64,000 bases of DNA, taken from a virus. The notes beneath the pieces are model-generated. The model made no database searches, was not told the DNA's origin, and saw nothing but the letters and a program-made list of their open reading frames with translations. Shown here piece after piece: positions 14,545-16,808 of this stretch. The stretch covers positions 1 through 64,000 of IMG/VR virus record IMGVR_UViG_3300008255_000114. One strand, given 5' to 3'. The translations under genes and the position numbers were made by a program. Position 1 is the first letter of the stretch. Each line of letters opens with the position of its first letter.

Positions 14545-16002
14545 AAAAGCCCCGCATCTGCGGGAACATTTGTATGAGTACATACCTGAAGCTAATCTGT
14601 CTTCAGTGGAACTCAATTGTTCAGTACGTCTACCTAGACATTCTCAGTGTCTTACTTCTGACCTAAAACAATAATAGGTTTTGAGTCATTAATGCTTGCG
14701 CCATTTATATACCGACCAACCTCTAATAATGGGAGAAAATCGGTTTGCGTTCTTTGTTCACATGATCGCTTACGTGTCTAACACCCAAAACCGTTTTATC
14801 CTAGGCAGGGTTATGTCCTAGTGTTTTCGCTAACCACCTCTAAGAGGAACCAACTTCACGTTGTATGGCGCTTTCCATTTGCCTTAAACTATGACATCGT
14901 TGAGTAGGACATAGCAAGGACTTCATCACCACCAATGTCGTAACCATTGGAACTTTCTTTTAATAGTGTACGTTAGGCTCCCTCATATTAAGACTCTGTA
15001 TAAATCGGTCATAACATTCAGCCGTGTAATCCTCGCAGTATACTAGTGCGGAGCATTCTTACAATGGTTTCAGTATAACCTCTACCATAGTGCCTACCAT
15101 ATGTAATTATAATTAGAACTCATTATTAATGAGGGAAGTATATAAATACCAACAAACATTATCGCGCCAATGAAGTGCTTTATGCTAAGACTACCTTTAA
15201 ACCATTGGCAAGTATACAGTAGAATTAAACAAGGTGATAATAGTAGTCTTGGGTAATCAATATTCCAACGCCCCTCTTACTACCACCTATACACAGACCC
15301 GAAATTAACCTACTTAGTCGCATCGCGCAGAAACCATATACTTATGGCAAGGTGTTGAACCAATATCTGGGTTCGGTGCAGAATATGACTTATATGAAAG
15401 ACACTGCCATCTCTATAACATGGATGTGGTCATACAGTATCACGTTACCAACAACTTAGTCTTGAGTTTATACACATCAGAAGTGTTGCATATTAGGCAT
15501 TTGTCATCACAAGTATTATGAGAGGGAACGTACCTTGCATTGTTTGCCATTTAAATTTCTAACCATAGTCGCAATTTCTTATGGTATCTCAGATAGGAGG
15601 TGGCTTATCCTCACTATTTTACAACACACCAGCTTGGTAGCTAGAGCACTGACTCGTCACATTTTGAAGTACTTGATACGGAGCCTTTAATTATGGATTA
15701 GCACTCTAAGGCCGAGACTAACCACACTACCGAAACATTTACACAAGAACCTTAAAATATACACTCGTAACGTGAATGACTCGATCACGCCAGTTCGTTA
15801 TATGTAGACTCACCTCTCACCTGTAATATTATATCTAATCAGGTGATGACACCACTTGGTGCTTATTCAGCTTTATCAGCCAATGAAGTGACTAAAGGTA
15901 AAGCACATTAGTCAGTTTGGTTCCGACTCTCACATCAGCATTATTTCCAATGATCACGGCAAAACATATTGTAACTACATACAAGTCATATACGGTGTTT
16001 TT
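14545..16002 (-). ncRNA. Candidate giant structured ncRNA (about 1.45 kb)
   Basis: No credible ORF; many helices and at least two pseudoknots; GNRA-type loops on the minus strand; ends in CCCGCA/TGCGGG-GCTTTT terminator. Confidence 0.6.
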
Positions 16003-16009
16003 AAATTAA

Positions 16010-16183
16010 ATTTTAAAGGTGTTTATGTGCGCTAACCACAGGCTATAAACAAGTCTAACCGTTTACGTATACTTTGACAGGCAATGTTGTATCTTACGTA
16101 TCACCTACTTTCGTAGTTATCCACCCGTATACTCTTGCACGACTTACCAGTCACTTGGGACTGAACATAAACACCTTTAAAAT
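16010..16183 (-). ncRNA. 174-nt structured RNA closed by a perfect 19-bp helix
   Basis: attttaaaggtgtttatgt (16010-16028) is the exact reverse complement of 16165-16183; internal CUAC-GAAA-GUAG and CAGUC/GACUG hairpins. Confidence 0.65.
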
Positions 16184-16210
16184 GTAGACTGTTTACGTCA
16201 GTCATTCGTC

Positions 16211-16288
16211 ATAACAACATTCTCGCACTACACCAAATCTAAATTGTGATACACTTTGATGGTGTTGGTTATCACTACCTGTTGTTAT
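16211..16288 (-). ncRNA. 78-nt H-type pseudoknot RNA inside a 9-bp closing helix
   Basis: 16211-19/16280-88; crossing stems 16230-35/16260-65 and 16246-51/16270-75. Confidence 0.55.
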
Positions 16289-16293
16289 AAAAT

Positions 16294-16380
16294 TGGTTAC
16301 CGTGAGAGGATTTGCACCTCTTCGTTTCAAACCTAAATAGATAGGATTAGGCATCTATCACCAAATTATAGTTCACGGTT
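16294..16380 (-). ncRNA. tRNA-like RNA with a 10-nt anticodon loop and encoded CCA
   Basis: Acceptor (A)ACCGUG/CACGGU(A)-A-CCA, D arm CUAU/AUAG, stem GCCUAA/UUAGGU, T arm AGAGG-UGCAAAU-CCUCU. Confidence 0.65.
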
Positions 16381-16443
16381 GTAAAGCAGGTGTTGATTAT
16401 ACGGTTGTTATTACCGTGTGCCAGAATCCTGCAACTGGGTATT

Positions 16444-16518
16444 TGGTGGCACCGATGGGTAACGATCCCAAGTCTTCTCGGTTATGAGCCAAGCAGCTTT
16501 ACCTTAAGCTACAGTGCC
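16444..16518 (-). tRNA. tRNA with CAU anticodon (elongator Met or Ile2)
   Basis: Cloverleaf GGCACUG/CGGUGCC-A-CCA, anticodon loop CUCAUAA, atypical T-loop AUCGUUA; lacks the initiator triple G-C stem. Confidence 0.85.
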
Positions 16519-16529
16519 TTTATTTAAAT

Positions 16530-16622
16530 TGGGTGAGGATGCATCAGGAGTTGAACCTGCATAGTAACACTGTTTATCAGTAAATCACTAACACCATAAG
16601 TGGATTAAGTTACTGTACATCC
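16530..16622 (-). ncRNA. tRNA-like RNA with acceptor stem and T arm, D and anticodon arms replaced by a 3-way junction
   Basis: GGAUGUA/UGCAUCC, CAGG-UUCAACU-CCUG, inner AGUAAC/GUUACU. Confidence 0.6.
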
Positions 16623-16628
16623 ATAATT

Positions 16629-16763
16629 TGGTCGGGAGTTGTAGACGTTACACTACACTATGAAGCCTCCACGCCAGAATTGCTTATTCAGGTATTCACG
16701 TCTAGGACGTTATCCCCTGCCAATAGTGACTCGGCAACCACGAACATCTTCGTAGAACTCCCG
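16629..16763 (-). ncRNA. 135-nt oversized tRNA-like RNA ending in ACCA
   Basis: Perfect acceptor CGGGAGU/ACUCCCG-A-CCA; UGUAG/CUACA T-like arm; inner hairpins UACGAA/UUCGUG, UGCCGA/UUGGCA, ACGUC/GACGU. Confidence 0.65.
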
Positions 16764-16779
16764 TTTATTTCTATAAGTT

Positions 16780-16808
16780 ATATTAACCTTCTTTCTCATT
16801 ATTGTCAA
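16780..16808 (-). promoter_or_regulatory. Sigma70-type promoter of the ncRNA/tRNA unit
   Basis: TTGACA-17nt-TAATAT; predicted start about 10 nt before the first tRNA-like RNA. Confidence 0.75.

Follow-up and report, generated by a model that had tools for sequence, protein, structure and literature searches.

In phage annotation, a tRNA region usually appears as a set of tRNAs accompanied by junk or by tiny hypothetical open reading frames (ORFs). The tRNA region of phage T4 also yields the small non-tRNA RNAs RNAC and RNAD, whose role is unknown (PMC3014915), and theta (minimal HDV-like) ribozymes adjoin phage tRNAs (PMC10879173). A survey of IMG/VR (Fremin et al. 2023) produced 8,495 covariation-supported candidates from intergenic regions, tRNA-like RNAs among them (PMC10690425). 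Here we analyze an ORF-free stretch on the minus strand of IMG/VR virus record IMGVR_UViG_3300008255_000114, a record of 103 kb of which positions 1 to 64,000 form the 64,000-nucleotide (nt) sequence that we refer to as the window. A previous reading of the letters of this DNA, which we call the sequence-only reading, had taken the stretch for a protein-free polycistronic unit of noncoding RNAs (ncRNAs), in which tRNA-shaped units are followed by a giant structured RNA. We find that its anatomy and strand do fit a tRNA-operon-like unit, but that the giant-RNA half of the proposal fails. In our judgment the stretch is likely to be an untranslated transcription unit of the tRNA-operon type, made up of independent and exchangeable small-RNA cassettes and carried by a large phage of the marine Shewanella/Vibrio type. 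One of these cassettes, which we call motif H (15058-14953, minus strand), is a pseudoknotted RNA of ~100 nt that is found again in the tRNA arrays of many other phages.

Organization and mosaicism of the ORF-free stretch

Between positions 16782 and 14498 on the minus strand, no ORF exceeds 61 amino acids (aa) in length, which bears out the proposal of a protein-free region of ~2.2 kb. Among the ORF-free gaps of the 103-kb record, identified with a cut-off of 70 aa, this one (14498-16782) ranks longest. The GC content of the stretch is 0.394, compared with 0.359 for the genome, and it lies above that of the flanks as well. A site scan located a sigma-70-like promoter, TTGACA-17-TAATAT, at 16808-16780 (minus strand; 10 of 12 matches), within the 3' end of the upstream 64-aa ORF. 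The -35 hexamer and the spacing of this promoter are kept identically in the closest relative, an IMG/VR contig that we call L004, and in Shewanella phage 1/4, and the blocks around it (16778-16721 and 16995-16764) are conserved in relatives. The promoter of the sequence-only reading is thereby confirmed by both the scan and its conservation, and the terminator that had been placed at ~14545 was recovered by the scan as an intrinsic-terminator-like hairpin followed by a T run at 14565-14550 (minus strand). All verified elements of the stretch are oriented on the minus strand, and the promoter and the terminator match the tRNA in this respect. Just past the stretch, a 120-aa ORF without a Pfam family (14135-14497, minus strand) sits between two terminator-like hairpins and is an insertion relative to L004; no relatives of this ORF were found in IMG/VR, so it is useless as a synteny anchor. 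The second-longest ORF-poor gap of the genome lies outside the window (G000:C1:65296-67536), has a GC content of 0.33, and contains a row of 45-60-aa ORFs on the plus strand. It shows no similarity to the RNA island described here.

Comparison with related phages shows that the stretch is modular. The flanking genes of L004 are 90-97% identical to those of the window at the protein level, and only ~1 kb lies between them. This interval contains tRNA-Arg(TCT) and tRNA-Gly(TCC), followed by matches to 15627-15459, 14878-14783 and 14779-14573 of the window. It lacks window positions 16764-15627 (1.1 kb) and 15459-14878 (0.58 kb), and its two tRNAs stand in place of the 1.1-kb left part of the window's stretch. 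Shewanella phages 1/4 and 1/40 have ten and seven short blocks, respectively, in common with the window, with 80-97% identity within the blocks and unalignable sequence between them. Two of the shared blocks occur in swapped order in phage 1/4, while phage 1/40 carries a 510-nt insertion with a 39-nt repeat on its borders and is without block K (described below). With distant phages, 0.34-0.35 of the bases of the stretch can be aligned, at 85-90% identity; for the flanking coding sequences (CDS) the fraction is 0.05-0.18, and the identity is 78-80% in three of four comparisons. With the close relative, the aligned fraction is 0.21 for the stretch and about 0.5 for the flanks. Since the stretch aligns more than its flanks with distant phages and less than its flanks with a close one, the modules themselves are conserved and it is their arrangement that is plastic.

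A similar layout is found in five Vibrio phages of 130-140 kb (1.063.O, 1.187.O, 1.193.O, 1.161.O and the F-series), which contain 1.2-2.1 kb without a credible CDS. In most of these phages the CDS-poor stretch comes after one to three tRNAs, the exceptions being 1.161.O, which has a weak tRNA match only, and 1.063.O, which has no tRNA. These stretches are themselves mosaic among ~40 phage records. In Vibrio phage F96 (L014:2274-3862), the ORF-free RNA region is covered on both strands by about ten annotated 'hypothetical proteins' of 30-60 aa, probably a case of over-annotation, since one of these mini-CDS overlies motif H.

Structure, distribution and covariation of motif H

Motif H is the only non-tRNA piece of the stretch shared with the Vibrio phages. 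We collected its occurrences by pattern scans of IMG/VR and JGI metagenomes and then with a covariance model, R1, built for this study. The model matches 34 sequences, 31 of them distinct, and gives the window copy a score of 86.9 bits. The matches come from marine and freshwater phages, with at most one copy per contig (34 contigs), and the contigs that carry them range from a T7-like one to others of up to 353 kb. The motif comprises a 4-bp helix, P0, in which GCUC pairs with GAGC; a 4-bp hairpin, P1, whose entire loop pairs with the 3' tail to form a pseudoknot; a conserved junction consisting of CGAGGA, two free bases and ACACGGC; and a hairpin, P2, which varies in sequence and length and forms in 19 of the 19 sequences tested. 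After P2 come the invariant GGGAGCCUAA and then the 3' tail. Four cores (GCUCCG, CGAGGA, ACACGGC and GGGAGCCUAA) are invariant and always occur in this order. The window copy has all four, and seven of its nine possible pseudoknot pairs are formed.

The pairing scheme is well supported by covariation. Across the 31 distinct sequences, 97.6% of the cells are paired, compared with 81.6% for column shuffles and 26-59% for slid partners. The covariation score is 0.377 versus 0.135, a value reached by none of 500 shuffles, and compensatory changes are seen in 10 of 15 pairs, including all seven pairs of the pseudoknot. The R1 alignment was fitted to P0 and P1 and the pseudoknot was left unfitted, so the support for the pseudoknot is the more independent result. 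The G-U pairs fix the strand on which motif H must be read, which in the window is the minus strand. That motif H is a structurally constrained RNA family is thus strongly supported.

Motif H is absent from Rfam 15. When the motif alone, taken from two lineages, was searched with cmscan at E values up to 10, only chance matches to snoRNAs were returned. HDV-like/theta, twister, twister-sister, pistol, hatchet and hammerhead ribozymes were each considered as identities for motif H and gave no Rfam match at E values up to 10, and the HDV, pistol and twister topologies have a different strand order. A resemblance to the ykkC/guanidine-I riboswitch was likewise rejected, there being no Rfam match at the same limit. 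The exact pattern of motif H occurs in none of 185,579 prokaryote genomes, its freshwater type in none of the isolated phages, and a description of it was found in none of the literature searched, whether by the motif or by its context. Motif H may be among the candidates of the IMG/VR survey (PMC10690425).

Genomic context of motif H

Wherever tRNAs are nearby, motif H is co-oriented with them, and most such loci lie inside or beside a tRNA array. The conserved 3' core of motif H is followed at a distance of exactly 12 nt by the start of a tRNA, Gly(GCC) or Asp(GTC), at 11 loci. These same 11 tRNAs start 2-4 nt past the pseudoknot, and the nucleotide at -1 is always U. A U at -1 is the usual context for RNase P, and RNase P would therefore define the 3' end of motif H where a tRNA follows. 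At one further locus (L041) motif H lies between two tRNAs, and at three others (L032, L035 and L052) it begins a few nucleotides past the 3' end of a tRNA. The remaining loci place it 1-2 nt past the stop of an ORF, between ORFs of a T7-like replication module, or behind a -10-like element. A downstream tRNA at 12 nt is thus a frequent context of motif H and not a defining feature. These contexts are consistent with a role as punctuation in untranslated or polycistronic RNA. Motif H would most likely act as a cis-acting element for processing, stability or antitermination, or be a small stable RNA whose 3' end is produced when RNase P cleaves the tRNA behind it.

The tRNA arrays that bear motif H hold other features as well. 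ARAGORN reports tRNAs with four-base anticodons (ccaa and tata) in two of them (L024:3481-3557 and L022:1195-1290), and a permuted tmRNA with the tag ANDEVFALAA in a metagenomic array (L035:3069-3435, minus strand). At another locus (L018, ~12330-12420, minus strand), three tandem GC-rich units of ~17 nt follow the tRNA-Gly(GCC) that lies downstream of motif H.

tRNA(CAU) and the tRNA-like units

The tRNA(CAU) at 16518-16444 (minus strand), which the sequence-only reading had recognized, is called by ARAGORN and matches the Rfam tRNA model, RF00005, at 44.4 bits (family threshold, 29 bits). It has an encoded CCA and is the sole tRNA of the entire 103-kb record. Judged from the sequence, its G1-C72 pair speaks against a role as an initiator. 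No tmRNA is found in the genome.

Three other units of the region have tRNA-like features. The first, of 135 nt (16763-16629, minus strand), has a perfect 7-bp closing helix, a discriminator A, an encoded CCA and a multi-arm body. Its minimum free energy is -46.5 (z-score of -2.96), and it folds better than 200 of 200 shuffled sequences. The closing helix, A and CCA are arranged as in the genuine phage tRNAs of the group, in agreement with the earlier description of this unit as a tRNA-like RNA. Only its first ~45 nt are common to phages 1/4 and 1/40, and L004 lacks the unit. The second unit, of 93 nt (16622-16530, minus strand), resembles the top half of a tRNA, with a 7/7 acceptor helix and a T-arm bearing a TTCAACT loop joined to a non-tRNA body. 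The combination of this T-arm and acceptor helix has a shuffle expectation of 0.25 per region, and the fold has a z-score of -1.42. An analogous 122-nt 'pseudo tRNA' is present in phages 1/4 and 1/40. This unit had been described as a D-armless tRNA-like RNA; the T-arm and the acceptor helix are indeed there, but its best model score is only 14.3 bits, and that against tRNA-Sec. The third unit, of 91 nt (16381-16291, minus strand), is cloverleaf-like with an oversized anticodon-type loop and a fold z-score of -2.22, and it occupies the position that tRNA-Arg(TCT) has in relatives. Its fold is consistent with the claim of a tRNA-like RNA having a 10-nt anticodon loop, but it has no Rfam tRNA match, and ARAGORN reports it at a relaxed threshold only.

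None of the three units matches RF00005 at E values up to 10 in a 591-nt search, the 14.3 bits of the 93-nt unit being the best score obtained, and ARAGORN calls them only at noise-level thresholds. The tRNA-like signatures exceed shuffle expectation. Since none of them reaches tRNA-model scores and none is conserved as a unit, we regard them as tRNA-like by partial features only. Two of the intervening segments were also evaluated. The conserved spacer at 16446-16382 (minus strand) contains a hairpin (fold z-score of -1.6) that overlaps a promoter-like CTGGCA-17-TATAAT found by the promoter scan; its counterpart in phages 1/4 and 1/40, the spacer behind tRNA-Gly, shows 97% identity. The 78-nt segment at 16288-16211, which had been read as a pseudoknot RNA, has a fold z-score of -1.28 that is indistinguishable from chance and has no relatives with which it could be compared, and we do not retain that reading. 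Units with the same kind of ends exist elsewhere: two Vibrio phages share 84-85-nt units (L015:2912-2995 and L016:2890-2974) that have a 7-bp closing helix, a discriminator and a CCA, and neither ARAGORN nor Rfam calls these units tRNAs.

Stem-closed cassettes and conserved blocks

The cassette at 16186-16007 (minus strand) is closed by a 22-nt A/T-rich inverted repeat whose arms are 95% complementary, and its fold has a z-score of -3.46. The claim of a 174-nt RNA with a long closing helix is upheld by these values. In phages 1/4 and 1/40 the arm motif of this repeat is found around other interiors, and the closing stems of several cassettes are long (16-22 bp) A/T-rich inverted repeats that have an arm motif in common. 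Elsewhere in the window the arm motif is absent; it is confined to this locus. Its reading as a genome-wide promoter was rejected given this single-locus occurrence. The closing stems may serve as framing or processing stems.

The remainder of the stretch consists of a series of blocks, all on the minus strand. A 470-nt block (16008-15538) is common to phage 1/40 only, at 80% identity, and its indels are not multiples of three. The core block D' (15627-15459) is found in all four relatives and includes ~75 nt that are nearly invariant as well as a 32-nt indel that breaks reading frames. The two blocks that follow, at 15458-15293 and 15226-15094, are those present in swapped order in phage 1/4, and both are absent from L004. 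Beyond motif H, blocks I and J (14963-14783) are defined by an alignment of four relatives. The last 44 nt of block J are invariant across the four relatives and might fold into a small hairpin or pseudoknot. Block K (14779-14573), the one missing from phage 1/40, is common to L004 and phage 1/4. Scans for exact and fixed-gap patterns of blocks D' and J return only the same four contigs.

Neighboring genes

The sequence-only reading had suggested that the RNAs of the stretch are cut from one transcript at tRNA-like ends and are possibly serviced by a CCA enzyme, a Thg1-like enzyme, an RNA ligase and an RlmN-like methylase of the phage itself. Genes for a CCA-adding-type nucleotidyltransferase, a Thg1-like protein and an RNA ligase are indeed present nearby, but the 'RlmN-like' gene has only a sub-threshold radical-SAM match (23.9 bits versus a cut-off of 29.5 bits). 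Genes of the NAD-salvage type at 2501-4941 (minus strand), which encode a NAPRTase-family protein and a phosphoribosyltransferase/PRPP-synthetase-like protein, adjoin the CCA-enzyme-type and RNA ligase genes. The large terminase gene is interrupted by two group I introns, at 9017-9274 and 9579-9792 (minus strand; Rfam scores of 59.6 and 73.8 bits), and pieces of the terminase are encoded by ORFs at 8211-9032 (Terminase_6C) and 9760-10194 (Terminase_6N). A CapR homology domain is found in two proteins, encoded at 10191-11405 (minus strand) and 48302-49264 (plus strand).

Alternative explanations

We considered whether the stretch is a decaying tRNA cluster, that is, a graveyard of tRNA pseudogenes and recombination scars in which only tRNA(CAU), and perhaps motif H, are functional. 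True tRNA-Arg and tRNA-Gly genes stand in relatives at the place of the window's tRNA-like units, which are unique to the window and fail tRNA models. The region is also a hotspot of gain and loss, and the folding energy of its bulk is no better than that of shuffled sequence. Against decay, non-tRNA blocks outdo the neighboring protein genes in conservation between distant phages, with blocks of 65-75 nt at 97% identity and a stretch of 44 nt that is invariant in four phages. Motif H is under clear structural selection, the ORF-free layout is found again in Vibrio phages, and the GC content is elevated. We therefore consider decay of the cluster as a whole to be unlikely.

An array of micro-ORFs encoding small peptides instead of RNAs seems to us quite improbable. 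Several minus-strand frames of 30-50 codons do exist, and tiny CDS are annotated in the homologous regions of phages 1/4, 1/40 and F96. These annotated mini-CDS, however, differ in position and in strand between relatives, and the indels in conserved blocks measure 1, 2, 4, 5 and 32 nt. The frame in block D' does not have one common start and has accumulated many non-conservative changes, and by our reading of the sequence no Shine-Dalgarno element is seen ahead of the frames. The genome's true small-ORF region, the gap at 65296-67536, has a GC content of 0.33, compared with 0.394 here.

The giant structured RNA can be stated in its strongest form as a single ncRNA at 14545-16002, similar to GOLLD and ROOL, with a conserved core of D', J and K and with the variable blocks inserted at its periphery. 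GOLLD and ROOL are located near phage tRNAs. Blocks D', J and K keep a constant order in all relatives that have them, and two 9-bp complementarities, D'-J and D'-K, fall in conserved sequence, with arms in four and three relatives, respectively. Complementarities of this length, however, arise in 91-100% of shuffles of these two block pairs, and those of at least 8 bp between conserved blocks in general arise in 47-100%. The ~1.45 kb of dense helices described by the sequence-only reading are not apparent: in 120-nt windows the mean folding z-score is +0.25 and 3% of the windows fall below -2, and when 14545-16008 is folded in this way against dinucleotide shuffles it behaves the same as the coding flanks. 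As a check, the sequence-only reading had named an Rfam search. A cmscan search of 14300-17000 at E values up to 10 returned the tRNA and two chance-level matches only, with none to GOLLD, ROOL, OLE, HEARO or raiA. Rfam searches of the window, the region, the motif, the tRNA-like part and the loci of seven relatives, both at the gathering threshold and at E values up to 10, gave only tRNAs and the two group I introns. Another check that it named, covariation and conservation in relatives, gave a divided result, with motif H covarying but the supposed giant RNA not being collinear, since block K is wholly missing from phage 1/40 and block order is changed in phage 1/4. Furthermore, the giant RNA fails because motif H, which lies inside it, is an independent motif of ~100 nt that occurs alone in 30 other phage sequences, as an autonomous unit. 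The modularity, the z-scores of folding and the frequency of long-range pairings in shuffles led us to reject a single giant RNA of the GOLLD/ROOL sort, which is not conserved as a unit, has no Rfam match and shows no excess folding energy; we regard it as very improbable.

A DNA-level element (a replication origin, packaging site or recombination hotspot) is barely credible: the stretch is ORF-free and inverted repeats with common A/T-rich arms bound its exchangeable segments, but a repeat search found no iterons or direct-repeat families (which led us to reject the origin/iteron reading), the GC content is higher than that of the flanks and not lower, the arm motif is confined to this locus, and a tRNA is present along with RNA covariation that is strand-specific and includes G-U pairs.

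Discussion

The arrangement that we favor, an untranslated unit of exchangeable small-RNA cassettes, suggests the following course of expression. Transcription of the minus strand would be driven by the sigma-70-like promoter and would run, as a single unit, through a string of small RNA cassettes comprising the decoding tRNA(CAU), several tRNA-like RNAs, stem-closed cassettes and compact structured motifs, to end at the intrinsic terminator. The cassettes behave as separate evolutionary units, each well conserved and yet gained, lost and reordered among related phages, and they are probably separate physical units as well. Host tRNA-processing enzymes, RNase P first among them, together with cutting at the long closing stems, may free the cassettes from the primary transcript. 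In this scheme, motif H would be a self-contained RNA with a pseudoknot and would serve as punctuation in untranslated or intergenic RNA of phages.

Several observations weigh against this arrangement. Most of the cassettes besides motif H are known from only four near-identical relatives, which puts their structures beyond a covariation test. No tRNA-like unit of the window is conserved as a unit in any relative, and all fall far below the Rfam tRNA thresholds, so that they may be tRNA genes in decay. In neither the window nor the Vibrio phages is motif H followed by a canonical tRNA. The site scan found further promoter-like and terminator-like sites inside the stretch, and there may accordingly be more than one transcript. 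Finally, a frame of 30 codons at 15892-15984 shows three synonymous changes out of five relative to phage 1/40, a proportion that is not significant, and a micro-peptide is possible there.

A more ambitious interpretation, which we offer tentatively and hold to be rather doubtful, is that motif H represents a new class of functional phage RNA. It might set RNA ends near tRNAs, either by cleaving itself or by guiding a nuclease, or it might keep RNA polymerase elongating through long untranslated arrays of tRNAs and ncRNAs. The islands of the Shewanella and Vibrio phages would then be libraries of exchangeable devices, possibly directed against defenses that target tRNAs.

The non-tRNA content of this tRNA region is modular, with blocks that are conserved above the level of the neighboring protein genes and shuffled like cassettes. 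Motif H provides a concrete and testable new RNA family whose fixed spacing to the 5' ends of tRNAs is suggestive. The analysis also corrects the over-annotation of mini-CDS in phages 1/4 and 1/40 and in the Vibrio F-series, and it serves as a warning that long ORF-free stretches of phage DNA should not be read as single giant RNAs.

Comparison with known systems

Among described systems, GOLLD and ROOL were the analogy drawn by the sequence-only reading, and the island is like them in being ORF-free, phage-borne and located beside tRNAs. It differs in having no covariance-model match, in not being one conserved unit, in showing no excess folding, and in consisting of separable modules. The stem-closed cassettes are reminiscent of units processed by RNase III, such as those of rRNA operons and T7 early RNA, in that closing helices of 16-22 bp surround variable interiors. 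The arms in the island, however, are A/U-rich and locus-specific, and we intend the comparison as an analogy only.

Theta ribozymes, which lie beside phage tRNAs, resemble motif H in being small, pseudoknotted and positioned a few nucleotides from tRNA genes, and a role in transcript processing is plausible for both. Motif H differs in that it has no match to the HDV clan of Rfam and, by our reading of the alignment, has a pseudoknot between a loop and the 3' tail and no element of the P3/L3 type. It also usually lies upstream of the tRNA and not downstream.

The tRNA region of T4 offers a likeness of context only, in that RNAC and RNAD (species 1 and 2), for which Rfam has no model, are likewise small non-tRNA RNAs accompanying a tRNA unit. 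As in T4, the units range from tRNA size to ~140 nt, and some of them have acceptor-like ends. Unlike the T4 region, the island is mostly non-tRNA, with one tRNA in its 2.3 kb; it is also much longer, and its mosaicism between relatives is plain to see. Finally, large marine, freshwater and jumbo phages have tRNA arrays in which motif H is embedded, in the same orientation as the tRNAs and a few nucleotides away. The phage of the window, by contrast, has one canonical tRNA, and it is non-tRNA cassettes that fill the slots of the array.

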